From Deinococcales bacterium (GTDB taxonomy: Bacteria; Deinococcota; Deinococci; Deinococcales; JAAFIG01), in the NCBI GenBank assembly GCA_031418155.1, contig JANOWZ010000512.1, positions 1-40,568 on the forward strand: DNA of 40,568 nucleotides, in the 5' to 3' direction. The position numbers were made by a program, and so were the translations under genes. Positions 21,333 through 40,568 of the stretch are shown here, in pieces. Numbering within the stretch: the stretch's first letter is position 1; every line of letters begins with the position of its first letter. The notes under the pieces were generated by a model that saw only the letters and a list, made by a program, of their open reading frames with translations, was not told the origin of the DNA and made no database searches.

Positions 21333-21758
21333 ATGCGCCGAATGTTGTTCGTCTGCCTGAGTCTTCTCGGTTTCGCCTTCGCCTCTTTCGGCTCGAGTCA
21401 ATCCGGCGCAACGCAATTGACTGACGCGCAAATTCTTGAGCGTGGTCGCCTGCTGACCTACTTTTTTTACGCGGTCAATATCGAACCGGTCTTCAACCAG
21501 TTCATCCCAGAATTGCAGGCTGGTGTCGGTGGTCTCGAGGCGTTTCGTGCATACCGGCAGGGCGGCGTTGAACAGTTCGGTGATGAGTTGAAGATGCTCA
21601 AAGAGGAAGTGGTTTCCGAGAATGGCGTGATCGGGTACGTGCGCACAGCAACGTTTGTGAAACGTCCGAAGGTGGTTTGGAGTGTGATTTTCGTTTTTGA
21701 TCCGATCTCAGGTGCGGTTGTGAATTTCGGCATTGAGTTCGCGGGCAATTTGCCGTAA
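21333..21758 (+). CDS. Hypothetical secreted protein
   Basis: Signal peptide MRRMLFVCLSLLGFAFASFG; no recognisable catalytic motif. ATG 21333 with AAAGGA upstream is preferred over GTG 21318. Confidence 0.5.
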   Translation: MRRMLFVCLSLLGFAFASFGSSQSGATQLTDAQILERGRLLTYFFYAVNIEPVFNQFIPELQAGVGGLEAFRAYRQGGVEQFGDELKMLKEEVVSENGVIGYVRTATFVKRPKVVWSVIFVFDPISGAVVNFGIEFAGNLP

Positions 21759-21801
21759 AAGCAGGGGAAAGATGAAAGGGAAAGGTAAAAGCCTCGAGCC
21801 C

Positions 21802-22527: not shown

Positions 22528-22702
22528 CAAACCGGGACCGTCGGTTTTGCTTCATGAAGACTCAAACCTGAGAATTTCTAGCAGAAAGTTTGGTTTTGTC
22601 TGTAATCAAAACCCGAATTGACCAGCATCAATTAACGCCCAAGCATTCATCGGTGTTACGATGCTTTCGCAAGTGATACCAAGGTTCAAAAGGGAGGTCT
22701 TT

Positions 22703-23899: not shown

Positions 23900-23920
23900 A
23901 CCTCGAGTTTTCAAGCTTGG

Positions 23921-23949
23921 ACCGGGAGAATCTTCCCGGTCTTCTTTTT
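23921..23949 (+). terminator. Rho-independent terminator after the DUF937-like gene
   Basis: ACCGGGA (23921-27), loop gaatct, TCCCGGT (23934-40), followed by cttcttttt. Confidence 0.7.
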
Positions 23950-23969
23950 GGCTGCCCTCAGACCTGCGG

Positions 23970-23975
23970 TATGCT
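23970..23975 (+). promoter_or_regulatory. -10-like TATGCT, 7 nt upstream of the glnS ATG 23983
   Basis: Plus strand reads ggTATGCTcgagcagATG. Confidence 0.3.
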
Positions 23976-23982
23976 CGAGCAG

Positions 23983-26337
23983 ATGTCAGACCACGCCCCG
24001 AACCCAGAACCGAAACGCCGCATCAGCCCGAATTTCATCACGGAGATCATTGACCGTGACCTCGAGCAGCAACGGTACGGGCAGGTTGTGACGCGCTTTC
24101 CACCGAACCCGAACGGTTTCGCGCATTTGGGCCATGCCTTTGCTAGTTTGCTAAATTTCGGTATCTCGCAAGATTACGCGGGACGTTTCGTGTTGCGCAT
24201 GGATGACACGAACCCAAAAACAGATCAGCCCGAGTACGTGACCGCCATTGCCGAAAGTTTGAAATGGCTGGGCTTGGATTGGGGCAGCGAGATCAGTTAC
24301 GCCTCGAGCTACTTTCCTGAATTGCACACCAGCGCCATTCGTCTGATCGAACGTGGCCTCGCCTACGTGGACAGCGTGAGTCCCGAAGAGATGTCACGCA
24401 TGCGCGGCACGGCCAGCATTCCCGGCAAGCCCAGTCAATACCGTAACCGCAGCATTGCCGAAAACCTCGAGATGTTTGCCCGAATGAAAGCCGGAGAATT
24501 CCCAGATGGAACTCACGTGCTTCGCGCCAAGATCGACCTCGAGAATCCGAATTTCAAATTGCGCGATCCGGTGTTGTACAGGATCGTTCACGCCACCCAT
24601 TACCGCACTGGCGATGATTGGTGCATTTACCCGAGTTACGATTTCGCGCAAGCGATCACCGACGCGCTCGATGGTGTGACGCACAGCTTGTGCTCGCTCG
24701 AGTTCATTGACAACAACGCCGTGTACAAATGGTTGATGCAGCATTGCTGGATCGAAGAGGGCCGAGGCGAACCGCCAGTGCAGTACGAGTTTGGACGCCG
24801 CAGCCTCGAGTACACGGTTGTATCCAAACGCAAATTGCGCAAGTTGGTCGAGGGCAACTTTGTGCACGGCTGGGACGATCCACGAATGCCAACCATTGCC
24901 GCGCAGCGTCGTCGTGGCGTGACATCCGAAGCGATTCGCACCTTTGCCGCCGGTATCAGTGTAAACCGCACAAACCGCACCGTCGATCTGGCGTTGCTCG
25001 AGAATGCGATTCGGGACGATTTGAACCATCGCGCACCTCGGGTCATGGCAGTTTTGAAACCGTTGAAAGTTGTGATCGAGAACTTGACGGAATCGCAAAC
25101 GCTCGAGGTTCCGTACTGGCCGCACGATGTCGTGCGCGAATCACCGGATGGTCTGGTTGCGCTGCCATCGGGTGAGCGTGTTGCGCCAGAAAAAGCGACT
25201 CGAGCCGTGGAGTTAACTGGAGAAATTCTGATCGAGCAGGACGATTTCGCGGCGAATCCGCAACCCGGATTCAAACGTCTAACCGTCGGTGGCAAAGTGA
25301 GATTGCGTGGTGCAGGCGTGATCCAATGCGAATCGTTCACAACCAACGATGCTGGAAAAATCATCGAGTTGCGTTGCAAACTCTTGCCAGAACCCGAGAA
25401 GGCGAATGCCGTGATCCACTGGTTGAACTCGAGCGCCGTATCAGCAGAGTTCAGGCTTTATGACCGGTTGTTCAAAGTTGCGCAGCCTGAAGCGGAAGCA
25501 AAAGAACTCGAGGAAGATGATGCAGAAGATGGCGAGCCAGTCGCAGATTTCTTGTCATTCTTGAATCCGAACAGCCTCGAGACCACGCACGGTTTTGTTG
25601 AGGTGAGCATCACATCTGATCCACCCGAGACGCGCTATCAGTTTGAGCGTTTGGGCTACTTCTGGCGTGATCCTGTGGACTCGACCAGTACGAAATTGGT
25701 GTTTAATCGGATCATCACGCTTCGGGATTCATGGGCGGAAAGAGCAGAACCCATCGAGGCCCGTAAAGCAAAATCCGACAAACCTCAAGTTCAACGCGAA
25801 CTCGAATTGAGTGTAGAAGAACAAAAAATTTTCGAGCAATTTAAAGCCAAAGGTGTTTCCGAGAACGAAGCGAGTGTGCTGGCCCGAGAACCAAAACTGG
25901 CCGCGTATCTCGAGTCTGCGGCACAACATGCACCGATCACGGCGCTCTCGAATTGGGTGGTCAACGATCTCGGCGGATTGCTGCGCGAGGGTGAAATCAA
26001 ACTGTCACCGGCTGGATTGGCTGGACTGGTGCAACTGATCGCGGATGGTTCGATCACGCGGCGCATCGCGCAGGACGTTCTGGTAGAATCGCTCGAGACG
26101 GGCGCGAACCCAAGCGAACTTGTGGCGCAAAAAGGTTTGAAAGTCGTCAGTGACACGGGCGAACTCGAAGCGATTCTCGAGGCTTTGATGACTCAATACG
26201 CCGATAAGGTCGCGGCATACCGTGCGGGCAGAACCGGCATGGCGGGCTTTTTCGTTGGGCAGGTCATGCAGGCCACCAAGGGCGCAGGCAATCCGCAGGT
26301 TGTGCAAGAATTGGTGGCGCGAAAACTGGCCGGTTAA
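23983..26337 (+). CDS. glnS: Glutamine--tRNA ligase with C-terminal YqeY/GatB-like appended domain
   Basis: Class I motifs (RFPPNPNGFAHLGH = HIGH; VVSKRKL = KMSKS-like), a GlnRS core of ~560 aa, then a ~200-aa tail (...SNWVVNDLGG...GFFVGQVMQATKGAGNPQVVQELV) typical of YqeY/GatB C-terminal domains. Confidence 0.9.
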   Translation: MSDHAPNPEPKRRISPNFITEIIDRDLEQQRYGQVVTRFPPNPNGFAHLGHAFASLLNFGISQDYAGRFVLRMDDTNPKTDQPEYVTAIAESLKWLGLDWGSEISYASSYFPELHTSAIRLIERGLAYVDSVSPEEMSRMRGTASIPGKPSQYRNRSIAENLEMFARMKAGEFPDGTHVLRAKIDLENPNFKLRDPVLYRIVHATHYRTGDDWCIYPSYDFAQAITDALDGVTHSLCSLEFIDNNAVYKWLMQHCWIEEGRGEPPVQYEFGRRSLEYTVVSKRKLRKLVEGNFVHGWDDPRMPTIAAQRRRGVTSEAIRTFAAGISVNRTNRTVDLALLENAIRDDLNHRAPRVMAVLKPLKVVIENLTESQTLEVPYWPHDVVRESPDGLVALPSGERVAPEKATRAVELTGEILIEQDDFAANPQPGFKRLTVGGKVRLRGAGVIQCESFTTNDAGKIIELRCKLLPEPEKANAVIHWLNSSAVSAEFRLYDRLFKVAQPEAEAKELEEDDAEDGEPVADFLSFLNPNSLETTHGFVEVSITSDPPETRYQFERLGYFWRDPVDSTSTKLVFNRIITLRDSWAERAEPIEARKAKSDKPQVQRELELSVEEQKIFEQFKAKGVSENEASVLAREPKLAAYLESAAQHAPITALSNWVVNDLGGLLREGEIKLSPAGLAGLVQLIADGSITRRIAQDVLVESLETGANPSELVAQKGLKVVSDTGELEAILEALMTQYADKVAAYRAGRTGMAGFFVGQVMQATKGAGNPQVVQELVARKLAG

Positions 26338-26382
26338 ACACACCTTGACGTGATTTTGATCAAGATTTGCGAGGCTGAAGAA

Positions 26383-27900
26383 ATGACTCGAGCACTGCGT
26401 TTGCTGGCCATCCTGACCTGTTTGTTCGGCGTTGCACTGGCCGCAACACCGTGGCTGCCGTTCTTGCGTGGCGAGACGCGGCCTCGCAATCCTGGTGTGA
26501 TTCAGGCTCGAGCCTCGGGTTGGATTGCGGGTTCCAAAATTCCGCCGGTCTTGTCGTACATCCCCACCTACCAGCACGATGTCAAACCGATCCTCGAGCG
26601 TCACTGCACAAGTTGTCACACGGTTGGCGGGATTGGTCCGTTCAGGCTCGATGATGCCAAAACCGTGCTTGAGCACGCGGATGTGATGCGGCATTCGGTG
26701 ATCGATAGGCGGATGCCGCCGTGGTTGGCGGGCGGCGAAAGTCCGAAGTTTGTTGGCGAACGCAGCTTGAGTGATGACGAAATTGCAATCATCGCCAATT
26801 GGTCTTGGGCGGGTGCCCCCGAAGGCATGACCGAAACGCAAAGCGCGAGCCAGGTCAAAGGACAAATCTCGAGTTTCAAACCGGACCTCACGCTTGAGAC
26901 GGGATTTGATTTCGTGCCGGATGCGAAACTTTCTGACGAGTACCGCTGTTTTATCCTCGATCCGAAATTGACCGGCGACCGATTTTTGAGCGGTTACGAC
27001 ATTTTGCCTGGTGATCGGCGCGTGGTGCATCACGTGCTGATGTACGAACTCACCCCAGCCGCGATTGCGGAGGCGCAGAATCTCGAGGCGCAATCCGATA
27101 AACGTGGCGGCTACACGTGTTTCGGTGGGCCTCGACTCTCGAGCCAACTTGAGCTTGTTGGTGCATGGGCTCCGGGCAGCAGCGCCACAGTTTTTCCGAC
27201 CGGCACGGGTGCGCGGTTGTGGGCGGGCTCGAGGATTTTGATGCAGGTGCATTACAACCTTTCGGCGGGCGCGAAGGCGGATCGCACACGGATTGCCTTG
27301 GCGTTCTCGAGCGACACGAACCTGAAACCGTTGCGTAATTTCGCACCGAGCGCCCCGGTCGAACTGGCCTGCAAAGGGCCGTACACGCCGGATCGCTCGA
27401 GCGGTTGCAACCGCGAATCGGCTTACGCTCGGGTGTTGGCGCTCAACAATTCCGGGCCGAACCGTCGCCGCCAAAACGGTGGCATGCTCGCGCAATGCAA
27501 ACGCAGTCTCGAGGAATTCACGGCGGGCAATTTGACGGGCCGCAGCAAAACCAGTTGCGAGTACAGTGTGCCCGCTAATCTCGAGATTCGTGGCGTGGCT
27601 GGACACATGCATTATTTGGGACAAAGCATCAAGCTTGAGTTCAACCCGCAAGATGCGGCGCGGCGACAGGTGTTGCTCGAGATTCCACGTTGGGATTTTC
27701 ACTGGCAGGGCTTCTACTGGCTTGAGCAACCAATGCAGGTTCGCATGGGTGACACGTTCCGCATCACCTGCGAGTTCGACAACAGCCCGGAGAATCAACC
27801 GTGGTTGGATGGCAAACAACGCGCACCGCGTTACACCGTCTGGGGCGAAGGCACCGAGGAAGAGATGTGCCTTGCCTACGTGCAGACGACCTTACGTTGA
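26383..27900 (+). CDS. Secreted PHM/DBH-like copper type II monooxygenase fused to an N-terminal CxxCH (PSCyt1-like) module
   Basis: Signal peptide; VKPILERHCTSCH...MPPW...WSWAGAP (heme-c-type CxxCH module); then DEYRCF...RRVVHHVLMYE (CuH His-His), GHMHYLG (CuM HxH) and TEEEMCLAYV (Met ligand region). Confidence 0.6.
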   Translation: MTRALRLLAILTCLFGVALAATPWLPFLRGETRPRNPGVIQARASGWIAGSKIPPVLSYIPTYQHDVKPILERHCTSCHTVGGIGPFRLDDAKTVLEHADVMRHSVIDRRMPPWLAGGESPKFVGERSLSDDEIAIIANWSWAGAPEGMTETQSASQVKGQISSFKPDLTLETGFDFVPDAKLSDEYRCFILDPKLTGDRFLSGYDILPGDRRVVHHVLMYELTPAAIAEAQNLEAQSDKRGGYTCFGGPRLSSQLELVGAWAPGSSATVFPTGTGARLWAGSRILMQVHYNLSAGAKADRTRIALAFSSDTNLKPLRNFAPSAPVELACKGPYTPDRSSGCNRESAYARVLALNNSGPNRRRQNGGMLAQCKRSLEEFTAGNLTGRSKTSCEYSVPANLEIRGVAGHMHYLGQSIKLEFNPQDAARRQVLLEIPRWDFHWQGFYWLEQPMQVRMGDTFRITCEFDNSPENQPWLDGKQRAPRYTVWGEGTEEEMCLAYVQTTLR

Positions 27901-28419
27901 AGTTGAGGACGCTGAGCTTCGATACGCCTCGAGCGCACGTTCTTCCGCCGGGATGCGCACGCCGAGCAGCATGATTGCGTTCAAGATCGTCCAAACAATG
28001 GCCGTGATCGACGCGCCAAAAATCAGTGGACCGGTCAGCAACTCGAGCGCGACAACGACATAATTGGGATGCGGAATGAACTTGTACGGGCCGCGCCTCA
28101 CGAGTTTCGCCCCAGGCACGATCAGGATGCGGGTGTTCCAGAACTGCCCCAGACTCGAGATGGCCCAGTAGCGCCCGAATTGTGCGAGGACAAAAATACT
28201 CAACCAGAGAAACCAGAACGGCCCAAATTGTGATCCTCGAGCCAAGCTTTCAAAGAACGTGGCGAGAATCCAGGCGCTGTGCATCGCCACCATCCACGGG
28301 TAATGCTCGGGTGCGTGTTCGATTGCGCCCTGGGATCGCGCCCAAGCTTCGTTGCGTTTGGCGACGCGCAACTCGAGCAGGCGTTGAACGATCACGAAGG
28401 TGATGAAGGCGTAAAGCAC
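27892..28419 (-). CDS. Isoprenylcysteine carboxyl methyltransferase (ICMT) family membrane methyltransferase
   Basis: RRGPYKFIPHPNYVVVALELL matches the ICMT/phospholipid-MT signature (R.P.Y....HP.Y); 4-5 TM segments; GTG start. The 3' end overlaps the convergent monooxygenase gene by 9 nt. Confidence 0.75.
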   Translation of the reverse strand: MLYAFITFVIVQRLLELRVAKRNEAWARSQGAIEHAPEHYPWMVAMHSAWILATFFESLARGSQFGPFWFLWLSIFVLAQFGRYWAISSLGQFWNTRILIVPGAKLVRRGPYKFIPHPNYVVVALELLTGPLIFGASITAIVWTILNAIMLLGVRIPAEERALEAYRSSASSTST

Positions 28420-28460
28420 GCCTCGAGTGTACGACGTGAATCGAGGCTCGAGGCGTGCTT
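28414..28460 (-). promoter_or_regulatory. Perfect 14-bp inverted repeat enclosing the ICMT GTG start codon
   Basis: AAGCACGCCTCGAG (28414-28427) / CTCGAGGCGTGCTT (28447-28460) with a 19-nt loop. The GTG start (28419-28417) lies inside one arm. It sits between the Yip1-like stop (28471) and the ICMT gene. Confidence 0.55.
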
Positions 28461-28470
28461 GCAGTGCTGT

Positions 28471-29028
28471 CTATCGTCCTATTGAGGAGATCACGACCAA
28501 CGGAGTGACAACCAGAATCGTCAGCACGAAGAAGATCGCCAGGTAGCCGATCACTGCGCCACCCAGCGTGGTCCAGATTTTGCTCGAGTCGGTGAAATTC
28601 ATACTGCTTTGGATCGCCAGATACGCGAAGTACACGCTGGCTGCGAATTGCGCCAAACTGATCACCGTGCCGAGCGCCCAACCCAAAATCATCATTGCAA
28701 TTGCCCCAACCACCGCCAGCGGAGCCCAGAAGAGTGCAAAGCTGTACGCAACCTCATCGAGCGTGCCGGTCCCGCCCTGCTGTTTGGCAATAAAATGCAC
28801 CAGGTAGGTGAAGGCAAAGAATCCGACCAGGGCCATGATTACGGCGGCGATCATGCCTCCCGCACCGGCACGAAAACTCAGCAACCCGGCGATGGCGCTC
28901 GAGGCGGCGATCAACAGGGCCGCATCCCGCATCGTGCCGCGTTTTTCGTACAACTCGAAGGTGGTGACGCTGGGTTTGCTGACGACGCTGACGCTCTGGT
29001 TGACCATCTCGGCGAACGTGACGGACAT
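28471..29028 (-). CDS. Yip1-domain family membrane protein
   Basis: Short cytoplasmic N-terminus followed by 5 TM helices in the Yip1-like arrangement; SD AGGAGG 6 nt upstream. Confidence 0.55.
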   Translation of the reverse strand: MSVTFAEMVNQSVSVVSKPSVTTFELYEKRGTMRDAALLIAASSAIAGLLSFRAGAGGMIAAVIMALVGFFAFTYLVHFIAKQQGGTGTLDEVAYSFALFWAPLAVVGAIAMMILGWALGTVISLAQFAASVYFAYLAIQSSMNFTDSSKIWTTLGGAVIGYLAIFFVLTILVVTPLVVISSIGR

Positions 29029-29126
29029 AAGAACCTCCTGAATGAGGGCTCGAGTTGAGGATCGGACCCCTCGAGTCTATCAGCTTGAGTTTAAATTTGG
29101 ATCAAGGTTCTAAACAGGCTCGGGTC

Positions 29127-29172
29127 ATGTGTGCTCACGCTCATATGGTGTCTATGTGTGCTCACGCTCATA
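29127..29172. repeat. 19-bp direct repeat (ATGTGTGCTCACGCTCATA) with 27-bp period at a gene 3' end
   Basis: Copies at 29127-29145 and 29154-29172. The second copy encodes the last codons and stop (YEREHT*) of ORF 29152..29601. Confidence 0.85.
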
Positions 29173-29601
29173 CAACGGCATCAAATTCCAAGCCTGAATG
29201 ATCGGTGCCGCCTCGGACGGACGGCTGGCATTCAGGGCGAGTTTGAGCATGCTGGCGGGCAAGCGCCGCAAACCCTCGAGATCGTTCTTTCGGGCCAAAG
29301 CCAGCGCGTTCTCATGCGAGAGACCACGCCGCAACAAAACACGTTCTCGGGTCAGCAACTCGAGGTTTTCATCTTCTGAGAACATGCGTTTCGCCGCCCG
29401 AGCCGCATTTGCCAGTTCGTCGGAACTCCCCAGAATCAAATGCTCGAGCGATTCCAGAATCTGGGTTTGCGGAATCTCGACGTGATCTATCGCGAAGGCA
29501 AAGACCGATTCTGCCGCCCGAGGAACCGCCGGATCACCGGTCGGTTCCCGCACAAGTTCGGTCTCGAGCAGCGTGTGGATTTCGTCAAGAACGGGCAGCA
29601 T
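29152..29601 (-). CDS. Hypothetical protein (helical, acidic), 18 nt downstream of the PKS gene
   Basis: Long ORF, co-oriented and tightly spaced with the type III PKS. No recognisable motif. Confidence 0.45.
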   Translation of the reverse strand: MLPVLDEIHTLLETELVREPTGDPAVPRAAESVFAFAIDHVEIPQTQILESLEHLILGSSDELANAARAAKRMFSEDENLELLTRERVLLRRGLSHENALALARKNDLEGLRRLPASMLKLALNASRPSEAAPIIQAWNLMPLYEREHT

Positions 29602-29619
29602 CTCGAGAATTTTACCGGT

Positions 29620-30684
29620 TTAAGTTCTAAACAGCACTTGTTCGGCGCTGAATCCCGGTCCGACGGCAGTCAGCAATCCGGGTTCATCATGCGGTAATCC
29701 AGGATGGCGCTGCATGAATCGCTCGAGCACAAACAGGACTGTGGCGCTGCTCATGTTGCCATGTTCGGCCAGGACAGCCCGCGCATCCTCGAGAACACTG
29801 GCGGACAATCCCAGCGCACTTCTGAACGCCTCCATGACCTTCTCGCCGCCGGGATGGGTCACAAAATGCCGCAATTGCTCGAGGCTGAGGTTGTGCTTGG
29901 CGCAGGCCATTTCGACATCGGCCCGAATATTTTTTTCAACAATGTTCGGCACGCTTTTGGAAATGTTGACCTTCAGGCCGGTGTTGGTCACATCCCAACC
30001 CATGATGTCCTCGGTCTCGTCCCAGAGCGTGCTCGAGCCGCCGATGATGCGCGGCCCATTCCCCTCTGGGGCGAGCACGATGGCTGCCGCGCCATCGGCG
30101 AACAGGCTGGTGGCGATCAGGTTCGGCCTCGAGATGTCGTTCGCCTGAAAGGTCAGGCTGCACAATTCGACCGCCACAAGCAATGCGGGTTTGCCAATGG
30201 CCCGCACGAATTCGCTGGCGCGGTTCAGGCCGCCCGCTCCGCCCGCACAACCCAAACCCCAAATGGGAACGCGCACGGTGTGCCTCGAGAGGTCGAGGCG
30301 TTTGATCAACCAACTGTCCAAACTCGGCGTGGCGAGACCGCTGGTGGAAACGAAGAAAATCCCGCCAAGCTCGCTTGCGTCCAAACCGGAACGCTCGAGC
30401 GCAATCCGGGCAGCGCGTTCGGACAAATCCAGCGCAACCCGAAAGTAAATCTCGTTGCGTTCCTGCCAGGAGTGATTCGTTTGAAACCACTCGAGCGGCG
30501 CACTGACATACCGCGATTGAATGTGACCGTTGTCGAACACGGCCAGCAGGCGGTCCACGTCGCGCAGACCGGCATCGAACAAGGATTTGACCAGTGTGCG
30601 CACATCCGCTTGGCTCAGGTGATGCTCGGGCACAGCGGTTCCAACCGATAAGATTCGCGGCTCGAGTTGAGAGGTTGAACTCAT
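29620..30684 (-). CDS. Type III polyketide synthase (chalcone/stilbene synthase superfamily)
   Basis: Active-site Cys context [13 protein letters not shown], His [10 protein letters not shown], Asn [14 protein letters not shown]; 354 aa. Confidence 0.9.
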
Positions 30685-31493
30685 CGAGTCCCGTCCCCAG
30701 CATGGTCAAGGGGGTCGGTTTCTGGCGTTTCACAGGATTCCCGAAACACGTACTGCGAAAGTCGCTTGCGGTGACGGCTCGACCAATCGATGCTCGGACG
30801 ACGTTCACCCGCACGGGCGTAACCCAGGCGGTAAATCGCCATCAACTCAAGGTGATCCGGGACTTTGAGAAGGTCCACAATCTGCTGCCAGTTCTCGGGA
30901 ATTTCCATCGGGGTGGACACAAACTGAATGCCCATCCCCAGCGCGTGCGTGGTCAACCAAATGTTCTCCATCGCCGCGCCCATGCCGAACAAACTGTAAA
31001 AACCGGAAAGTTGACCAGGCTTGTACTCGGCTTTGTCCAGCATCACGCCCATCAACAGCGGGCTGCTCGCCACCAAATCACGGTTGTCACGGCCAAGCAT
31101 TTTCGGCACGCCCAAACGCCGCATCAACTCAAGCCCAGTTGGGCTAAAAACCTGCTTGATGAACGGCTTGAGCGGCCCCGGCAATTGATCGATCAGGATG
31201 CCATCGCCGCGCTCCTCGAGTTCTTTTTGGTTGAAACGAAAGTACGGCATGTAGCGCTCGAAGAATTTACCCTCACCGATCAGGCGTTCCATGCTGGCCC
31301 CGGCAATCTCGGCGATCTTGTTGCGGGTCGTTTCGGACTCGATAAAACAAAAGCGCCACGGTTGCGAATTGAAATGGCTTGGCGCTCGAGAGGCGGCCTC
31401 CATCAACAGCAATTGATGTTCACGCGACACGGGCCGAGGATCGAACGGGCCGTTCGTGGTTTTGCGGTTGCGAATCACCTCGAAGAAATCCAT
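30681..31493 (-). CDS. Nitroreductase family protein
   Basis: [17 protein letters not shown]...[12 protein letters not shown] matches the nitroreductase N-terminal FMN-binding pattern. The stop overlaps the PKS ATG by 4 nt (ATGA). The ORF-track N-terminal extension to 31880 is judged non-coding. Confidence 0.8.
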
Positions 31494-31591
31494 GCGCACC
31501 TCGAGCTTAACCCGCCAGGGACCATTCTTCACGATACGGAATACAAATCGAACCTGGACAATTGCACCTGTCAAAGCTTGGCTCGAGCGGA

Positions 31592-31903
31592 TCAAACAAT
31601 GGCCAGTACGTAGCCGAGCAGACCGACCAAGGCCAGATTTCGATGCGGCCCGGAACCGCCGCGAAAACGTGGCAGCAAGCCGAGCGCCAACAAAGTCGGC
31701 AAGAATGCCCACCACCTCGAGCCCGCCAGAATCGAGGTCAATGCCGCCGCGCCCGCTGCGACGAAGACCACGCCATACAAGGCGTGATGCACCCAATGAA
31801 AGCGTTTGGTGCTGACCCAACGAAACTGCACGCCAACACCCAACGCCAGGTTCGAGACGTACAACCCAAACCCGACCCAAAGCGCCAGTACCTCGAGTTT
31901 CAC
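31592..31903 (-). CDS. Small hypothetical membrane protein (3-4 TM) heading the PKS operon
   Basis: From GTG 31903 the protein is hydrophobic with a conserved-looking [11 protein letters not shown] segment. The upstream part of the ORF-track ORF (to 32095) is not protein-like. Confidence 0.4.
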
Positions 31904-31938
31904 AGCTTCACCATCACGGCTCGAGTCTCCACCGCTCG

Positions 31939-31944
31939 AGTATA
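31939..31944 (-). promoter_or_regulatory. -10 box TATACT, candidate promoter of the PKS operon
   Basis: Minus strand reads gtgcgTATACTcgagcgGTG.... Six nt later a 10-codon mini-ORF begins, and its TGA overlaps the GTG at 31903. Confidence 0.35.
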
Positions 31945-32033
31945 CGCACGAGATTCTGGGCTCGAGATTGAGGCGATACCCATGGTGTTGCATTTTCGCT
32001 GGCAAATCGTGAAAAGGACCCTGCAATACCAAT

Positions 32034-32999
32034 TTGTTGGGCCTTTTGACGCAAAAAAGTCGATTGCTGTGGTGGTTGGGAATCATCCTGACCACCGGTT
32101 TTTTGGGCTCGAGCCTGCTGAGTTACGTCGCCGCCCGCAACACCGTGCGTGACAACATCGTCAATCAGGGCTTGCCACTGACCAGCGACACGGTGTATTC
32201 GGAAGTGCAACGCGAACTGTTGCGTCCGATCTCGATCTCGGCGCAGATGGCCGAAAACACTTTTTTGCGCGAATGGGTTCAGGCCGGAGAGACCGACATC
32301 GGTCCAGTCGTGCGTTACTTGCGCAACATCAAGGATCATTTTACCGCCGACAGCAGCTTTTTCATCTCCGAACGAACCCGTCGTTGCTACCATCCGCTCG
32401 GGATCCAACAGGTGGTGAGTGAAAGCGACCCAAAAGACACCTGGTACTTCTGAACTCGAGCCCTGAACGTCCCTTACGAGTTGAATGCCGATCCAGACAT
32501 GGGCAACCGCGACACGATGACGGTCTTCATCAATTACCGATTGCTGGATGCCAAAGGTCAATTCTTGGGTGTGACCGGTGTCGGCGTGACCCTGAAGACG
32601 TTGCAAAAACTCTTGCAAGGCATCGAAAAACGGTTCGAACGCCGCGTCTACTTCGCCGATACGCACGGCAAGATCGTGCTTGCCAACAGCGAAGACCTCG
32701 AGCTTGGCGGTTCGCTGCAAGCCATCCCAAACCTGAGAGACGTTGCGGCACAACTGCTGAACAAGAATGCGGTCACGACCAGCGCCTCGTACAAAAATGG
32801 TAGCTCGATGGTTTTGGTTCACTCGAGGTTTATCCCAGAACTCAAATGGTTCTTGGTGGTCGAACAGGACGAAGCGACCATCATCGAACCGTTGACACGC
32901 CTGCCCTTGATCGGCTTGATCCTTGCGGACCTGACATTCCTGGTGATGTTGTGGGTGGCGATCAGCTCAAGGTTTGGTTCGAGGAAACCGGCACAGTAA
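32034..32999 (+). pseudogene. Double-Cache-type periplasmic sensor gene, interrupted by an in-frame TGA and lacking any output domain
   Basis: ORFs 32034..32453 and 32481..32999 are in the same frame, separated only by TGA 32451-32453 (..DTWYF*TRALNVPYELNADPD..). The layout is TM1 - Cache-like sensor - TM2, then a stop 12 codons after TM2. Confidence 0.6.
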
Positions 33000-33029
33000 A
33001 CCTCAGACCGAACGCTCAAGCCATGAGAT

Positions 33030-33719
33030 TCAGACCAAAAACTCGAGTGCAGGATGAAATCGTTTTTCAACCGTGAACTTCTCGGCGTATTTCACACCAA
33101 CCAAACGTCCGGCGTGTGCTCGGGTTTGCAACCAGTCATCACGGTTCGTTTTCCAACCGTAAAACCGTGCAAAAAACTCGAGCGATTCCGCACCAACATG
33201 CGCGTGATCCGTGATGTTGGTGTGAACGACTGTCCGGGTCGATTCGGCGCAGGCGTATTGGTAAAAGCTCACGCCGCCACGGTGTGCCTCAAGATGATCG
33301 AAACCGCCCTCTTGCACGACCTTCGGAATTCGGGCCAGCGTGATCGCATCGAACGCAATCTTTGCCACCGCACGGTGATCCGGGTGCCGGTTGAAATCGT
33401 CCCAAGTGATGATCGCATCCGGTTTGAACTCGCAGTACAAACGGGCAACCTCGAGCGCCTCGGAACGATCACCGGTCATGCGGGTGTCACCGAAATCAAA
33501 GAAACGGTACGAACCACCGACCAGCTTGGCGATGTGCTCGCCGTGAGAGTGACGCACCCGTTTGACCTCAGCGGCATCCACACCCACAAAATGTGAGGCG
33601 TTCTCGCCATAGGTCGTCCAGACCAGCATCACCTCGTCCCCTCGAGCGGCGTGCTTGGCGAGGGTTGAGGCGCAACCGACCTCATCGTCGGGATGGGCGA
33701 ACACGGCAATGATCTTCAT
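33030..33719 (-). CDS. PIG-L/LmbE family N-acetylglucosaminyl deacetylase
   Basis: MKIIAVFAHPDDEV and NRHPDHRAV zinc-binding motifs. Confidence 0.85.
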   Translation of the reverse strand: MKIIAVFAHPDDEVGCASTLAKHAARGDEVMLVWTTYGENASHFVGVDAAEVKRVRHSHGEHIAKLVGGSYRFFDFGDTRMTGDRSEALEVARLYCEFKPDAIITWDDFNRHPDHRAVAKIAFDAITLARIPKVVQEGGFDHLEAHRGGVSFYQYACAESTRTVVHTNITDHAHVGAESLEFFARFYGWKTNRDDWLQTRAHAGRLVGVKYAEKFTVEKRFHPALEFLV

Positions 33720-33725
33720 GCGCGG

Positions 33726-33731
33726 ATTCTA
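33726..33731 (-). promoter_or_regulatory. -10 box TAGAAT, 6 nt upstream of the PIG-L ATG (leaderless-type)
   Basis: Minus strand reads ttcggTAGAATccgcgcATG. Confidence 0.45.
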
Positions 33732-33781
33732 CCGAACACAGAACGTTTTGTTGGTCGCAGACACTGCATCCTTCAAGCGCG

Positions 33782-33787
33782 TACACT
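33782..33787 (+). promoter_or_regulatory. -10-like TACACT, 7 nt upstream of ATG 33795
   Basis: Plus strand reads gcgcgTACACTcgagccaATG. Confidence 0.35.
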
Positions 33788-33794
33788 CGAGCCA

Positions 33795-34763
33795 ATGCCA
33801 GCTCGCATCACCATCGAAGCATCTGTGGGCCTCGAGCGGCGAGCACACGCCCTGAGCGAATACCTGAGCGAACTGCACGCCAACTTGGAAACGAACCTCG
33901 AGCGAACCCTGAAACCCGTCAAACTCTGTGTCTTGAGTGAGCTGGACTGGGGCCAGCAGGTGCAATACCCTTACGGCTTCACCTTCTACCGGCGCTTGCG
34001 TGACGGCGGCGGCGTGATCTTCGCCCCAGGCAATTATCCGGGCAACCTGACCTGGGTGTTCAAAAGCGTGATGGTCCGCGCCGAACAAGCTGGTGTGCGT
34101 GTTCCCGGAACGCTCGAGGAATTCTTTGACCTGACGCTCGGGCATGAATTGGGGCACGCGATAGCCGATCAGCTTTCGGTGCGGACTCGAGTGCGCTGGC
34201 TGGACGAATTTCTCGCCACGTACCTGTACGTTGGAGCGCTCGAGCAGACGCAACCCAAAGCCCTGGCCCGAGTGATCCAGTGGGGAAACGTCCTCGAGCA
34301 GGCCGAGTTTGACCCGGATGAAGTTCGAGACGAAATTCTGAATGACCTCGAGTCAGACGAATTGAACCCGACCGAATTCGATTCACTCAGCCTCGAAACT
34401 CGAGAACGACCAGCCAGCCCCGAATCAGTGGCTCGAGAACAACTGATCAGACCCGCCGGGAATCGAAAACGCAAAACCAAAAAACGCTTGGAACGATCCC
34501 TCGAACACACCATCAAACGCCACGACCTTGGCGCGTTCGAGTTTCCGTTTCAACGCCTGCCGCTCGCCAATCAAGCCTGGTATCAAGCCAGGTTTACCTT
34601 GCGGGCCACGGACCTGCTGCGAACTCGAGGTTTGGAATTCATGCGCAGCGCCAGCGAGGTGCTGCCCACTGCTCGAGGTCGAGGCGGGATTCACCGCGCC
34701 ATGATCCAACTCGAGCCATCGTTCAAACCGTGGTTCGCCAGTTTTGGACGTGCCCAAATCTGA
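33795..34763 (+). CDS. Uncharacterised HExxH protein (putative zinc-dependent hydrolase)
   Basis: LTLGHELGHAIAD motif, followed by a highly charged insert (..RKRKTKKRLERSLEH..). Start taken at MPARITIE. Confidence 0.5.
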   Translation: MPARITIEASVGLERRAHALSEYLSELHANLETNLERTLKPVKLCVLSELDWGQQVQYPYGFTFYRRLRDGGGVIFAPGNYPGNLTWVFKSVMVRAEQAGVRVPGTLEEFFDLTLGHELGHAIADQLSVRTRVRWLDEFLATYLYVGALEQTQPKALARVIQWGNVLEQAEFDPDEVRDEILNDLESDELNPTEFDSLSLETRERPASPESVAREQLIRPAGNRKRKTKKRLERSLEHTIKRHDLGAFEFPFQRLPLANQAWYQARFTLRATDLLRTRGLEFMRSASEVLPTARGRGGIHRAMIQLEPSFKPWFASFGRAQI

Positions 34764-34802
34764 ACCGGTGGGAAAACACACGCATCACTCGAGCACAATT
34801 GT

Positions 34803-34808
34803 TAAAAT
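34803..34808 (+). promoter_or_regulatory. Extended -10 (TGT-TAAAAT), 6 nt upstream of ATG 34815 (leaderless-type)
   Basis: Plus strand reads aatTGTTAAAATacgcgcATG. Confidence 0.45.
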
Positions 34809-34814
34809 ACGCGC

Positions 34815-35465
34815 ATGTCACAAATCCCAGCCGAATTCCAACTCACCGAACTCGAAGCCCGAGTCTTAGGCGTGATGATGGAAAAACAAGTCACCGTGCC
34901 GGACTCCTACCCGATGACCGTCAATTCTGCGCGGCTCGGCAGCAACCAGAAAAACAGTCGCTTCCCGATCACCGAATACACCGAAAAAGACATCGCCGTG
35001 ACCCTCGAGCGACTCGGCGACCGGCGACTCGTGACGATTGTGCGCGAATACAACGCTCGAGCGCCAAAATACTCGCAACTCTTAACCCGAGAACTCAAGC
35101 TTGAGCCGCAACACACCGCCATCCTGAGTGTGCTGATGCTGCGCGGCCCACAAACGCCCGGCGAACTGCGCGGACGGGCCGAAGCGATGTTCAAATTCTC
35201 CGGCCTCGAGCATGCCGAACAGGTTTTGCAGCAACTCTGCGAATGGATTCCCGATCCGCTGGCGGTCAAACTCGAGAAGTTGCCTGGAGAACGCGATGCC
35301 CGTTATGTGCATCTCTTGACCGACCCGGAAGTGCAACGCGAAGCTCGACCCGCACAGGCCCCAGGCGCGAGCCCCACTGGAGGCACATTAGAACGGGTCG
35401 AAGCGCTCGAGGCGGAAGTCAGAAGTTTACGCGAACGCATCGAAAGGCTCGAGCGCGGGGAATAA
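34815..35465 (+). CDS. yceH: YceH/DUF480 (UPF0502) family protein
   Basis: LTELEARVLGVMMEKQVTVPDSYPMTVNS...NQK, LRGPQTPGELRGRA, ERDARYVHLL and a C-terminal coiled coil. It is colinear with my recollection of E. coli YceH. Confidence 0.75.
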   Translation: MSQIPAEFQLTELEARVLGVMMEKQVTVPDSYPMTVNSARLGSNQKNSRFPITEYTEKDIAVTLERLGDRRLVTIVREYNARAPKYSQLLTRELKLEPQHTAILSVLMLRGPQTPGELRGRAEAMFKFSGLEHAEQVLQQLCEWIPDPLAVKLEKLPGERDARYVHLLTDPEVQREARPAQAPGASPTGGTLERVEALEAEVRSLRERIERLERGE

Positions 35466-35489
35466 TCGGCCAAGCTCAGCACCAATCAA

Positions 35490-35533
35490 AAAGCTCGAGC
35501 GAAACACCCAAATGGGCATCCCGCTCGAGCTTT
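35490..35533. terminator. 12-bp inverted repeat between convergent yceH and ilvC (bidirectional terminator candidate)
   Basis: AAAGCTCGAGCG (35490-35501) / CGCTCGAGCTTT (35522-35533) with a 20-nt loop. A/T runs flank both sides. Confidence 0.55.
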
Positions 35534-35550
35534 GTATTTCTTGTAATGCC

Positions 35551-37162
<1,612 letters not shown>

Positions 37163-37163
37163 G

Positions 37164-37496
37164 TCACTCCTGATGTTGCGCGTATCGCTCAAGGTACGGC
37201 GTGACTTTCGCTTGCAGCACTTCGATCAAGTCCGGGTCCATGAATTCGTAATGGTCTGGAATGCCCAGCGTGATGATTTTTGTTCGGGTTCTGAATTTCT
37301 CGAGGATGTTTTTGCGATGGTGGCGTTCCATGACCAGGATCAGATCGGCCCATTCGATATCGTCTCGAGCGATTGGGTTCTCGGCATCTTTGGCGGTCCC
37401 GGCAGATCGCACGTTGATGCCTGGCGTGTCGAAAAAGACGCGCTCGGCGGTGGGGCTGCGCAATCGGTTTCTCGAGCAGACAAACAAAATGTTCAT
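37164..37496 (-). CDS. Low-molecular-weight phosphotyrosine phosphatase-like protein (short form)
   Basis: P-loop C-x5-R-S: ILFVCSRNRLRSP; 110 aa. Confidence 0.7.
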   Translation of the reverse strand: MNILFVCSRNRLRSPTAERVFFDTPGINVRSAGTAKDAENPIARDDIEWADLILVMERHHRKNILEKFRTRTKIITLGIPDHYEFMDPDLIEVLQAKVTPYLERYAQHQE

Positions 37497-37826
37497 TTAG
37501 TCCACGATAAAAAGTTTCGCACCGGTTGCGGTGCTCGAGCGATGCGCCTCAGCTCCATCGGCCACTTGATAATTGATTCCTGGCTTGAGTTTGAAGGTGC
37601 GTCCATCCTCGAGTTCGGTATCGAGTTCACCCTCGAGACACAAGAGGATGTGGCCTTTTTTACACCAGTGATCGGCCAGGTATCCGGGCGTGTATTCGAC
37701 CATGCGCACGCGAATCTCACCGAAATGCTGCGTGCGCCAGAAGGCCGTGCCGGTCTCGCCGGGATGTGTTGTGGTTTCGATGTTCGCCCAATCGGTTGTA
37801 CCGAATGGGATCTCGAGCATCTTCAT
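37497..37826 (-). CDS. Small cupin-fold protein (DHCW-motif cupin family-like)
   Basis: 109 aa; ...VEYTPGYLADHWCKKGHILLCLEGEL... matches my recollection of that family. Confidence 0.6.
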   Translation of the reverse strand: MKMLEIPFGTTDWANIETTTHPGETGTAFWRTQHFGEIRVRMVEYTPGYLADHWCKKGHILLCLEGELDTELEDGRTFKLKPGINYQVADGAEAHRSSTATGAKLFIVD

Positions 37827-38105
37827 TTAGACGCTCGCGTGAACGTACCGGGCAAGGCTCATGTCGTGCCAACCAAAACGCTCGAGTGCGGTCAAGCGTC
37901 CGAGTTCGTCGATCAGTGTGACCTCGAGCGTGTCGAGTTGCGTGCCGTGCTTCACGAGGTCGTCGTAGATGACTTCAAAGGCGTGCGTGAACATGTTGCG
38001 CCCAGCAAAATCTTGAGCCTCGAGCGCGGCAAAGAAATCGAGTTTGGATTCGACACGATGCAGCAGTGCCTCGAGTTTTTGTTTGAGTTCTGTCCGTTTA
38101 GTCAT
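37827..38105 (-). CDS. Hypothetical 92-aa helical protein
   Basis: The ORF overlaps the ilvN stop by 8 nt, and its stop abuts the cupin ATG (TAAATG). No motif recognised. Confidence 0.45.
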   Translation of the reverse strand: MTKRTELKQKLEALLHRVESKLDFFAALEAQDFAGRNMFTHAFEVIYDDLVKHGTQLDTLEVTLIDELGRLTALERFGWHDMSLARYVHASV

Positions 38106-38652
38106 TGGCGACCCCTTGAAGTGGATGCTCGAGTGCGACGCTTTCGCCCTGGTAGACGTGGCTTGGAATGTCGGCGTTGCTGCCTCGGGTCAATGCGACG
38201 CGGCCCGTGCGCATGGTTTCGATCAATCCGAATGGACGCATTTGTTCAATAAACGCAATGATTTTTCCTTCGTCGCCGGTGGCCTCAAAGACGTAACTCG
38301 AGCGGCCCACGTCCACATTGCGGGCGCGGAAGTCCTCGGCGATTTGTCGAATCTCGAGGCGGGTTTCGGGTGTGACTCGGACTTTGAGCAATACCAGTTC
38401 GCGGTCCACGAATTTCTCTCGGGCGTGATTGGTCACCAGTAGCACATCCTCGAGTTTTTCGAGTTGGCGTTGAATCTGATCGGCCATCGCTTCGGGCGCT
38501 TCAGCGATAAACGTCATGCGCGAGATGCCGGGTTGTTCGGTGTTGCCGACCGACAGCGAATAAATGTTGTACCCACGCCGAGCGAACAATCCGCAGACGC
38601 GCATCAAGACTCGGGGTTCGTCGCGCAGGAACGCGGAGAAAATGTGTTTCAT
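38098..38652 (-). CDS. ilvN: Acetolactate synthase small (regulatory) subunit
   Basis: ACT-domain start ...LRDEPRVLMRVCGLFARRGYNIYSLSVG.TE.PGISRMT; 4-nt overlap with ilvB. Confidence 0.9.
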   Translation of the reverse strand: MKHIFSAFLRDEPRVLMRVCGLFARRGYNIYSLSVGNTEQPGISRMTFIAEAPEAMADQIQRQLEKLEDVLLVTNHAREKFVDRELVLLKVRVTPETRLEIRQIAEDFRARNVDVGRSSYVFEATGDEGKIIAFIEQMRPFGLIETMRTGRVALTRGSNADIPSHVYQGESVALEHPLQGVAND

Positions 38653-40337
38653 GCTATGACTTTCTCGCGTGCGCCCAATGGATCGACTGGCTCGAGTTTC
38701 GGATCGTCATCGAGCATTTCGTCAAGACCTTTTCCGGCGGGAACCATTGGGAAGACACCTTGCTCGGACGGCACGCGTACCTCGAGCACGCTGGGGCCGT
38801 CGGCATCGAGCCATTTTTGAATTGTGCTTTGCAAATCACTGGCGGTTTCGGCGGTGAATCCTGGAATGCGGTACGCGCTCGCCAGGATCGCAAAATCCGG
38901 GTTGGAATCCTCGAGGTAGACCTCGCTGTAACGCTTCGCGTGGAACATCTCCTGCCATTGGCGCACCATGCCAAGGTAGCCGTTGTTGATAACCACGAAT
39001 TTCACGGGAATGTCGTACTTGCGTAGCGTGGCGAGTTCTTGAATCGTCATTTGTGCACTGCCGTCTCCGGCGAAAGCAATTACGCGCTTGTTCAGTGCAA
39101 TCGCAGCCCCCATCGCGGCGGGCAGTGAGAAGCCCATCGTGCCAGCACCACCGGAATTGAGCCACAAGCGCGGCCCCTCGAATGGATGGAGTTGCGCGAC
39201 CAGCATTTGATGCTGCCCGACATCGGAAACCACGATGTCATCGGCTTTGAGCGCTTTGGAAATCATTTCAATCGCTGCCGCAGCGCCCCAAGTTGGGCGT
39301 TTGGGTTGACGCGATTTCCAATCCTCGAGCTTCGTCCACCAATCGCCCGTCTCGAGTTTGCCGCTGATGCCTGCCGTGAATGCCTCGAGTGCGGCGGCAC
39401 TGTCCGCATGAACTGGGATCAGGGCCGGGATGAGTTTGTTGTGCTCGGCAGTGTCCACGTCCACGTGAATGATCTTGGCGTTCTGTGCGAAACGGCTGGT
39501 TTTGCCGGTCACACGGTCATCGAAACGCATGCCGACCGCGACCATGACATCGCAGTTGGTGATTGCACGGTTGCTGGCGACACTGCCGTGCATTCCGGGC
39601 ATCCCGAGCCATTGCGGATCGCTCGCCGGAAAATTGCCAAGGCCCATCAAGGTGGTGATCACGGGCATTCCGGTTTTGTGTGCGAACTCGAGCACTTGCG
39701 CACTCGCATCACAGGCTCCGCCACCGACGATCAACAATGGCTTTTTCGCGTTGCGGATCAACTCGAGGGCGCGTTCAACGTCGCTGGCTTTCGGCTCGAG
39801 ACGGGCTGGAATGGTTTTCGGTCCGACGATTGGCGCGTTCGTTTTCGCCTGTTGCACGTCTTTGGGCAAATCCACCAGCACCGGTCCCGGACGGCCCGAG
39901 AGCGCAATGCGGATCGCTTCGGCCACGGTTTTGGAAACGTCATCGGCGCTGCGAACCAGGAAATTGTGCTTGGTCACGGGCGCGGTGATGCCGGTGATGT
40001 CGGCCTCTTGGAAGGCATCCGTGCCGATCAGTGGGGTTGGGACATTGCCGGTGATCGCCAGGATTGGCAGGCTGTCCAGCATCGCGTCGGCCAGTGCGGT
40101 TACGAGGTTCGTCGCACCGGGGCCGCTCGTCGCCATGCAGACACCAAGCCCGCCCGTGACGCGAGCATAACCCTCAGCCGCGTGACCTCCGCCCTGTTCA
40201 TGCCGGACCAAAATGTGCTGAATCGGGCTGTCGTACAGCGCGTCATAGACCGGCATGATCGTGCCGCCGGGATGTCCAAAAATGTGTTTGACCCCGTGGG
40301 CCTCGAGTGTTTTTAGGAGTGCTTCTGATCCGAGCAT
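38649..40337 (-). CDS. ilvB: Acetolactate synthase large (catalytic) subunit, biosynthetic type
   Basis: ThDP enzyme pattern: GHPGGTIMPVYDAL, GPGATNLVT, and the ThDP-binding GDGSAQMTIQEL...NNGYLGMV. SD AAGGAG upstream. Confidence 0.95.
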   Translation of the reverse strand: MLGSEALLKTLEAHGVKHIFGHPGGTIMPVYDALYDSPIQHILVRHEQGGGHAAEGYARVTGGLGVCMATSGPGATNLVTALADAMLDSLPILAITGNVPTPLIGTDAFQEADITGITAPVTKHNFLVRSADDVSKTVAEAIRIALSGRPGPVLVDLPKDVQQAKTNAPIVGPKTIPARLEPKASDVERALELIRNAKKPLLIVGGGACDASAQVLEFAHKTGMPVITTLMGLGNFPASDPQWLGMPGMHGSVASNRAITNCDVMVAVGMRFDDRVTGKTSRFAQNAKIIHVDVDTAEHNKLIPALIPVHADSAAALEAFTAGISGKLETGDWWTKLEDWKSRQPKRPTWGAAAAIEMISKALKADDIVVSDVGQHQMLVAQLHPFEGPRLWLNSGGAGTMGFSLPAAMGAAIALNKRVIAFAGDGSAQMTIQELATLRKYDIPVKFVVINNGYLGMVRQWQEMFHAKRYSEVYLEDSNPDFAILASAYRIPGFTAETASDLQSTIQKWLDADGPSVLEVRVPSEQGVFPMVPAGKGLDEMLDDDPKLEPVDPLGAREKVIA

Positions 40338-40568
40338 GGTGTTCTCCTTAAGGGATGGGAGGGCGATTTTGTGGAGTCTAACTCGAGGAAGTGAGGCGGA
40401 GAGGAAAGTAACAGAAGAGGAAGGGCGAACAGCCCGTCAGCGATCTAGGCCCATTAGGTGCCGGTGTTGGATCAAGAAGGTGCTGTCCTGTGAACAAGAA
40501 AGATCAAAGTAACGGCCTAAAGTGCGTTCGATTTTGGGTTTTGATTTTACGTTTCTCTTTCATCTTTC

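Follow-up and report, generated by a model that had tools for sequence, protein, structure and literature searches.

Hyperabundance of the palindrome CTCGAG, a HIP-like word that shapes codon choice and dipeptide use in an uncultured clade of Deinococcota

Why does the palindrome CTCGAG recur so often in a stretch of Deinococcales DNA, and why does it lie so often in frame, as the codon pair CTC-GAG (Leu-Glu), inside conserved genes? We addressed these questions in 40,568 nucleotides of a Deinococcales bacterium (GenBank assembly GCA_031418155.1, contig JANOWZ010000512.1, positions 1 to 40,568 of the forward strand); this whole stretch is called the window below. A preliminary description had proposed that a DNA-level pressure fixes synonymous sites and shifts amino-acid sequence in this DNA. 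Such a pressure was found in all three reading phases, in DNA outside genes, in codon choice and in the excess of Leu-Glu, and the CTCGAG excess proved to be a trait of a whole clade rather than a property of the window alone.

Abundance of CTCGAG and its effect on codons and dipeptides

Counting of the hexamer gave 285 copies in the 40.6 kb of the window, or 7.0 per kb with a mean spacing of 141 bp; the runner-up palindromic hexamer has 28 copies.

1..40568, no strand: field of 285 CTCGAG sites, defined by counts, shuffles and a Markov background

Dinucleotide-preserving shuffles of the window contained 10.9±2.9 copies (maximum 18), and a second-order Markov background predicted about 6 copies when the sites were masked, the observed number being ~46-fold above this, and 22 when they were not. 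The excess over chance is ~25-45 times, and a short GC-rich palindrome at least ~15-fold above Markov expectation is the first mark of the highly iterated palindromes (HIPs) of cyanobacteria. The bases flanking the sites are almost random, with a weak G at -1 and a weak C at +6, so that the repeated unit is the six bases alone rather than part of a longer repeat.

Reading phases were assigned on a set of 36 genes, most of which have Pfam support, while the others were confirmed by genes called on L001 and L002, two contigs nearly identical to the window; the antisense open reading frames 9894-10727 (-), 22628-23914 (-), 31914-32822 (-) and 36777-38252 (+) were dropped as spurious on the basis of Pfam scans and called genes. 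The density of CTCGAG was 8.5 per kb in DNA outside the gene set versus 6.8 per kb inside it. The genic sites numbered 147 in phase 0 (62%), 36 in phase 1 and 54 in phase 2, versus 27.6, 1.3 and 4.1, respectively, when synonymous codons were shuffled and the proteins kept, and 11.6, 1.2 and 2.1, respectively, when the order of codons was shuffled. Over the synonymous shuffle every phase was raised 5-28 times, phase 1 by 28 times and phase 2 by 13 times. Elevation in three reading frames and in non-coding DNA is a second HIP-type mark, and it identifies the excess as a property of a DNA word rather than of a peptide or translation signal.

The effect on codon choice is large. In the 36 genes, 147 of the 191 Leu-Glu pairs (77%) are encoded CTC-GAG, versus ~7% expected from codon use elsewhere, CTC being 16% of the Leu codons away from Glu and GAG 42% of the Glu codons away from Leu. 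Leu-Glu is never written CTG-GAG and only four times TTG-GAG, despite the rank of CTG and TTG as the most frequent Leu codons. The preliminary description had allowed that the pair might simply follow from the single-codon frequencies; their product predicts 11.3 CTC-GAG pairs versus the 147 observed. A codon-pair or translational bias, in which single-codon preferences explain the pair and the excess is confined to the frame, does not describe these data.

The proteins are changed as well. Leu-Glu occurs 191 times versus 76±8 in amino-acid shuffles (maximum 96 in 500), a 2.5-fold over-use that is the strongest of any dipeptide in the window, while the reverse dipeptide Glu-Leu shows no excess (79 versus 76, ratio 1.0). 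The surplus amounts to ~115 pairs per 11,600 codons, or ~1% of dipeptide positions. The preliminary description had also suggested a tabulation of the peptides that host the other two phases; over-use was found for the phase-2 host x-Ser-[Ser/Arg] (115 versus 78±8) and was absent for the phase-1 host [SPTA]-Arg-[VADEG] (85 versus 76±8). DNA-level pressure thus fixes synonymous sites and shifts amino-acid sequence in this genome.

Four genes illustrate these effects:

38649..40337, minus strand: ilvB, acetolactate synthase large subunit (Pfam TPP_enzyme N, M and C domains), 10 sites
8891..9589, minus strand: hisA, 5 sites, all in frame
23917..26337, plus strand: glnS, glutaminyl-tRNA synthetase (GlnRS) with a C-terminal YqeY/GatB domain, 16 sites, 13 in frame
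33693..34763, plus strand: clade-restricted HExxH protein, 13 sites, 8 in frame and 5 in phase 1

A recount of the first two agreed with the preliminary description. All ten ilvB sites (38691, 38781, 38910, 39324, 39351, 39384, 39687, 39762, 39795 and 40302) are in phase 0 and encode all ten Leu-Glu pairs of the protein, and the five hisA sites encode five of its six. This all-in-frame pattern is partly luck, since the overall share of phase 0 is 62%. The sites of glnS are mostly in frame, as claimed, the exact count being 13 of 16 and not 12 of 15; the HExxH protein is indeed rich in Leu-Glu, with 13 in 356 amino acids (12 in 322 had been given), but 4.1 rather than ~2 are expected from its own composition.

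Comparison with orthologues showed where the new pairs arise. The IlvB protein has 10 Leu-Glu versus 2.2±1.3 (maximum 6) in 80 orthologues, and at none of its ten columns is Leu-Glu conserved; all ten are variable, usually with one residue that matches the family consensus and another that is conservatively changed. The product of ilvN, directly downstream of ilvB, has 4 versus 1.7 in orthologues, and that of ilvC, further on, has no excess (2 versus 1.6). The GlnRS of the window has 15, versus ~10 in Meiothermus, 4-7 in Deinococcus and 1-4 in Archangium; approximately six of the 15 are ancestral pairs that were recoded and the rest are new, at places where the second residue varies. Leu-Glu was the majority pair at 5 GlnRS columns in the outgroup and at 18 in either of two in-group subclades; the subclades share 11 of these, and the 7 private to each indicate that Leu-Glu accumulation is continuing. 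The preliminary description had named both the comparison with relatives and the mapping of gains to variable positions as checks. The idea that the excess is special to less constrained proteins did not hold: the observed/expected ratio of ilvB exceeds that of the HExxH protein, the S1-domain protein and ilvC have no Leu-Glu excess, and the genes for the S1-domain protein, ilvC, ParA and DUF937 carry few or no CTCGAG.

The HExxH protein, whose motif reads HELGH, matched no Pfam family. None of the 80 homologues detected bears a genus name; four have a taxon label, and these come from Deinococcota/Deinococcales metagenome-assembled genomes (MAGs). The protein appears to be a putative metalloprotein specific to this lineage.

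One extension of the hexamer is avoided. The 8-mer CCTCGAGG occurs twice in the window versus 19.2 times expected from the frequencies of the flanking bases (P=6e-7). It is 5-10 times rarer than these bases predict in the window and also in the loci L083, L084 and L086-L090, with 12 copies versus ~56 expected in the pooled clade loci, whereas the count of GCTCGAGC matches expectation and CCTCGAGG is not depleted in loci of Thermaceae (27 versus 31). Such avoidance might stem from a restriction activity specific for the 8-mer, or from a rule of sequence context in whatever process keeps CTCGAG in place.

Conservation, spacing and distribution, with other features of the window

Conservation of the sites was measured on one genome pair over 7.4 kb, the window against locus L083 (82% nucleotide identity, 65% at third positions). 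Thirty-seven of 49 window sites (76%) were kept, versus 35% of control hexamers in matching phases. Retention of CTC was 83% inside the motif and 50% outside, and that of GAG 83% and 57%, respectively, so that in this pair the sites are conserved in position beyond both control words and codons, a third HIP-type mark. Sites found in one genome alone were nearly balanced between the two (12 and 16), and one-mismatch neighbours were aligned to CTCGAG in the other genome in 21% of cases versus 4% for controls. The two near-identical contigs L001 and L002 (99.2-99.3% identity) had 2 and 1 in-motif differences versus 3.5 and 2.0 expected, numbers too small to inform.

Among the one-mismatch neighbours within the window, those of the transition type occur at 2-3.5 times expectation and those of the transversion type at 0.8-1.5 times; the pair CTTGAG/CTCAAG, on which a Vsr-like T:G repair would act, is 3-fold enriched. 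The raised transition neighbours point to decay products of a large pool of sites and not to consumed substrates. A Vsr-like repair signature was ruled out, since its T:G products are enriched instead of depleted.

The spacing of sites, pooled from five loci (826 gaps) and compared with a geometric model, appears more even than random, with mutual avoidance within 20 bp. Gaps of 6-9 bp were found twice versus ~21 times expected and gaps of 10-20 bp 21 versus 50 times; gaps of 40-180 bp were mostly enriched (0.9-1.9 times expectation across 10-bp bins) and those above 250 bp were depleted. The longest CTCGAG-free stretches in relatives are low-GC segments (L084 4318-6557, L084 20213-21607 and L088 15741-17694), 1.4-2.2 kb long and with a GC content of 0.37-0.42 versus 0.49-0.59 for their loci. 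One such L084/L088 segment is an AAA_16 gene insertion that is absent from the syntenic L086 and L087, and CTCGAG thus seems to be missing from newly acquired DNA. Among the matches listed, viral contigs with three clustered CTCGAG were mostly of high GC content, and GAGCTC was also common in them.

DNA near-identical to the window was found in the NCBI MAG GCA_031370845.1, in a European Nucleotide Archive (ENA) assembly and in freshwater-sediment metagenome runs. The nearest named relatives by ilvB are Deinococcus (58% identity) and Trueperaceae (55%), and by the YqeY-fused GlnRS Meiothermus (63-64%). The density of CTCGAG across the phylum was as follows:

Eight further loci of the uncultured clade (GC 49-61%): 4.1-8.4 CTCGAG per kb
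Calidithermus chliarophilus: 3.6 per kb
Allomeiothermus silvanus-like locus: 2.9 per kb
Meiothermus taiwanensis: 2.3 per kb
Truepera-like and Trueperaceae MAGs (L004-L006): 1.4-2.3 per kb
Two Deinococcus loci: 0 and 2 CTCGAG in ~21 kb each, no enrichment

The clade loci come from independent Joint Genome Institute (JGI), ENA, NCBI and Logan assemblies, L088 lying on a contig of 5.08 Mb, and CTCGAG is the top palindromic hexamer in every one of them. It is also the top one in the Thermaceae loci L091-L093, at 6-10 times expectation and with 53-80% of Leu-Glu written CTC-GAG, and in L005 and L006, and it ranks sixth in the GC-rich L004. In the clade loci CTC-GAG accounts for 53-82% of Leu-Glu. 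The share is high even where GAG is scarce: in the GC-poor relatives L084 and L087 it is 78-82%, with CTC at 11-13% of the other Leu codons and GAG at 20% of the other Glu codons. A neighbour-joining tree of GlnRS placed all sequences with 12-26 Leu-Glu in one clade without named members, sister to Meiothermus/Calidithermus (7-14), with Deinococcus (4-7) and Archangium (1-4) outside. With eight further loci and a monophyletic GlnRS clade the trait is lineage-wide, a fourth HIP-type mark. CTCGAG hyperabundance defines one uncultured freshwater-sediment clade of Deinococcota and is weaker in Meiothermus, Calidithermus and Truepera-like genomes.

Several other features of the window were recorded. 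Two tandem repeats are present, a perfect 23-bp one (GCTCGAGGACTGGCGATGCTCAA, 3.3 copies) with one CTCGAG per unit and four sites in the array, and a 14-bp one (GCCAATCACTTCTG, 3.1 copies) at 1737-1779, at the 3' end and downstream of an M20 peptidase gene.

13694..13769, no strand: 23-bp tandem repeat with CTCGAG, in the spacer between the stop of a Wzy-like gene and the start of an amidohydrolase gene

No tRNA genes or Rfam families were found in the window. The dCache-domain gene at 32037-32999 (+) has an in-frame stop at codon 148 and lacks its GGDEF half; its orthologue in L083 is an intact dCache-GGDEF protein of 492 amino acids and the L001 copy is frameshifted, and the window gene is probably a pseudogene. 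Between glnS and an ICMT-family gene lies a gene (26350-27900, +) resembling copper type II ascorbate-dependent monooxygenases of the PHM/DBH family, unusual in bacteria, which is absent from this place in the syntenic L083. At 27892-31493 (-) a type III polyketide synthase shares a stretch with the ICMT-family methyltransferase and a nitroreductase-like gene, an arrangement that, by its Pfam matches alone, is reminiscent of bpsA/bpsB or srs-type alkylresorcinol/alkylpyrone clusters.

Explanations of the excess

The explanation that we favour, and hold to be fairly probable, is that CTCGAG is a hyperabundant palindrome kept by a genome-wide DNA-level force, which would be selection for sites read by a symmetric DNA-binding enzyme. 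Such a force would hold CTCGAG at about one per 140 bp in the uncultured clade. The in-frame CTC-GAG would be the cheapest way for genes to carry the word, so that nearly every pre-existing Leu-Glu would have been recoded to it, and new Leu-Glu would be made at tolerant positions, typically by changes of L-x to L-E or of I/V/M/A-E to L-E, with x-Ser-Ser/Arg pairs also created to a lesser extent. Transitions would erode the sites and the force would restore or replace them, leading to a dynamic equilibrium. The selection would act for dense, evenly spread sites, the candidate reader being the partner-less CTCGAG N6-adenine methyltransferase family of the sister family Thermaceae, and methylated CTCGAG would label resident DNA for repair, recombination or self-recognition, a role already proposed for HIP1 with its orphan methyltransferases in cyanobacteria.

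The candidate reader comes from the supplementary tables of Blow et al. 2016 (PMC4752239), which contain Type II N6-adenine methyltransferases for CTCGAG without a restriction partner: M.Mru1279II of Meiothermus ruber, where 99.5% of CTCGAG is methylated, M.Mch9957IV of M. chliarophilus and M.Mhy14884I of Marinithermus hydrothermalis, the last an Eco57I/TaqI-superfamily protein. The same study reports no CTCGAG methylation in M. silvanus (strain DSM 9946). Its main text mentions CTCGAG only for an orphan enzyme of Nocardiaceae, whose sites form clusters at the replication origin, and in the main text and supplementary tables searched we found neither genome-wide CTCGAG hyperabundance nor effects on proteins. 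An orphan CTCGAG methyltransferase producing N6-methyladenine (m6A) is the obvious candidate, and the most plausible one, for a partner of the motif. Homology searches were seeded with the M.TaqI sequence, verified against the PDB; they retrieved only TCGA-type orthologues, and among the representatives of clusters at 50% identity they picked up 150 distant relatives, all unnamed. P0404, the best methyltransferase candidate by Leu-Glu excess, was rejected because its unrelated genome has almost no CTCGAG.

Four points weigh against the favoured explanation. These M.TaqI-seeded searches found no CTCGAG methyltransferase for the clade of the window. The Allomeiothermus silvanus-like locus, so called from its GlnRS in the A. 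silvanus cluster and taken from a metagenome rather than from the typed strain, is still 8-fold enriched in CTCGAG; as no CTCGAG methylation was reported for DSM 9946, the motif may outlast the enzyme, or the two may be less tightly linked than we suggest. The clade sequence examined is limited to ~250 kb in pieces of 20-40 kb. Lastly, the data do not separate selection from biased repair. A more specific proposal, which we put forward tentatively, is that Deinococcota outside Deinococcus independently evolved a HIP-like watermark of dense, even, m6A-methylated CTCGAG, read by a repair, recombination or self-recognition system and under selection strong enough to have added the Leu-Glu surplus given above.

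The main rival, rather unlikely in our judgement, is a neutral biased repair or gene conversion that turns near-cognate hexamers into CTCGAG in long-resident DNA, the motif being without function and the protein changes collateral. The enrichment in every compartment is compatible with it, and so is the lack of sites in putatively recent low-GC inserts, as accumulation with time predicts. The near absence of synonymous near-cognates among Leu-Glu pairs (CTG-GAG 0, TTG-GAG 4) and the frequent match of one-off neighbours to the motif in the sister genome (21% versus 4%) also speak for conversion. However, one-mismatch neighbours are not depleted overall, with transversions at 0.8-1.5 and transitions at 2-3.5 times expectation, and the 3-fold enrichment of CTTGAG/CTCAAG is the reverse of what Vsr-like T:G repair of this substrate would leave. 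Moreover, m6A, the methylation known in relatives, does not deaminate, and neither the short-range exclusion nor the deficit of long gaps is predicted by site-autonomous conversion.

A signal for DNA uptake or self-recognition in natural transformation, methylated or not, would be a sub-case of selection for a read site rather than a true alternative, and we regard it as improbable. Natural competence occurs among Thermaceae and Deinococcus, but DNA uptake by Thermus and Deinococcus is regarded as sequence-independent and the uptake sequences known to us are 9-12 bp long and non-palindromic. The conservation of CTCGAG across the clade, its absence from foreign inserts and its presence in all compartments fit such a signal, and HIP1 offers precedents in transformation: one preprint reports that HIP1 improves transformation in a methylation-dependent manner (bioRxiv 10.1101/2024.09.10.611283), and another proposes HIP1 as an uptake signal (bioRxiv 10.64898/2026.06.24.733823). 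The present data bear on sequence and not directly on uptake.

A cause in the proteins or in translation, with Leu-Glu favoured for helix stability or adaptation, CTC-GAG as the preferred pair and the hexamer as a by-product, is very improbable. It agrees with the 62% of genic sites in phase 0 and with the rank of Leu-Glu as the most over-represented dipeptide, but it leaves unexplained the 28- and 13-fold elevation of phases 1 and 2 and the higher density outside genes. CTC (16%) and GAG (42%) are not preferred apart from each other, Glu-Leu is not enriched and the orthologues of other lineages lack Leu-Glu at these columns; this explanation would need grossly wrong gene models, against which the Pfam matches on most genes argue.

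A dispersed repeat of the repetitive extragenic palindrome (REP) or miniature inverted-repeat transposable element (MITE) type, XhoI linkers, or a chimeric assembly or cloning artefact has a negligible probability: the 23-bp array does hold four sites, but it is the only tandem array of this kind found, the flanks of the sites are close to background composition beyond the weak G(-1)/C(+6), as a shared flank or a longer imperfect palindrome would not leave them, the sites lie in frame inside conserved enzymes, and the density is equal in independent NCBI, ENA, JGI and Logan assemblies, the motif being present also in the cultured Meiothermus and Calidithermus genomes.

Significance and comparison with known systems

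Hyperabundant palindromes have been studied almost only as cyanobacterial HIP1, whose function is debated after three decades. An independent second case would allow comparative tests of a selected motif against a repair by-product, and the CTCGAG case adds another word, another phylum, graded strengths across lineages and cultured relatives with mapped CTCGAG methyltransferases; if the watermark proposal is true, the weaker versions in cultured Meiothermus/Calidithermus, with their mapped methylomes, would make palindrome function testable outside cyanobacteria. It is a quantifiable case of a DNA-level constraint that overrides codon preference and alters proteins, with a bearing on codon-usage models, on alignment-based inference of selection and on phylogenetics (convergent Leu-Glu gains in separate subclades). 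CTCGAG density is also a simple marker for binning the clade and may flag sequence of foreign origin within it, and digestion of clade DNA with XhoI would give fragments of ~140 bp. In the literature searched, no paper connects CTCGAG with over-representation or with HIPs, be it in Meiothermus, Thermus, Truepera or elsewhere, none cites the source MAG or its sample identifiers, and we found no published mention of CTCGAG as the top palindromic hexamer in cultured-type Thermaceae.

Dam/GATC and Dcm-Vsr/CCWGG of enterobacteria are methylated palindromes, and a system linked to repair shapes how often and how far apart they occur in the genome. To our knowledge these motifs deviate less than ~2-fold from expectation and do not reshape dipeptide use, and the Vsr-type signature, depleted T:G products, is not seen in the window. 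The uptake signal sequences (USS) of Pasteurellaceae and DNA uptake sequences (DUS) of Neisseriaceae are asymmetric words of 9-12 bp, present at ~1 per kb and recognised by the competence machinery, which bias codon choice and peptide content and sit at tolerant protein positions. CTCGAG is likewise a genome-wide word that biases codons and peptides, mostly at tolerant protein positions, but it is shorter (6 bp), palindromic and denser (~7 per kb), is not known to serve in uptake and is not set in a conserved extended context.

The orphan m6A enzymes M.Mru1279II, M.Mch9957IV and M.Mhy14884I share their recognition word and their phylum with the window. What is reported for this class of enzymes is methylation and, for Nocardia, clusters at the replication origin (PMC4752239), whereas the trait of the window is hyperabundance.

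The closest likeness is to HIP1 (GCGATCGC) and the alternate HIPs of cyanobacteria, GC-rich palindromes over-represented 15-300-fold (Elhai 2015, PMC4390886; Nucleic Acids Res 2018, PMC5861425). HIP1 occurs in all frames and in non-coding DNA, keeps its positions between genomes better than control words do and its codons better than they are kept outside the motif, is non-randomly spaced and has orphan methyltransferases, without a settled function (PMC4390886, PMC5861425). CTCGAG shares the GC-rich palindromic form, the presence in all frames and in non-coding DNA and the conservation of position and codons, and its spacing may be non-random in a similar way. It differs from HIP1 in being a 6-mer and not an 8-mer, in belonging to Deinococcota and not to cyanobacteria, in its higher density per kb, and in its strong preference for one reading frame with a measurable shift of a dipeptide; the link to a methyltransferase is documented in relatives rather than in the clade of the window. 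It is not HIP1 proper, CGATCG occurring only twice in the window and the organism being a member of Deinococcota. With its driver offered as a proposal, CTCGAG is best described as a HIP-like hyperabundant palindrome in a second phylum.

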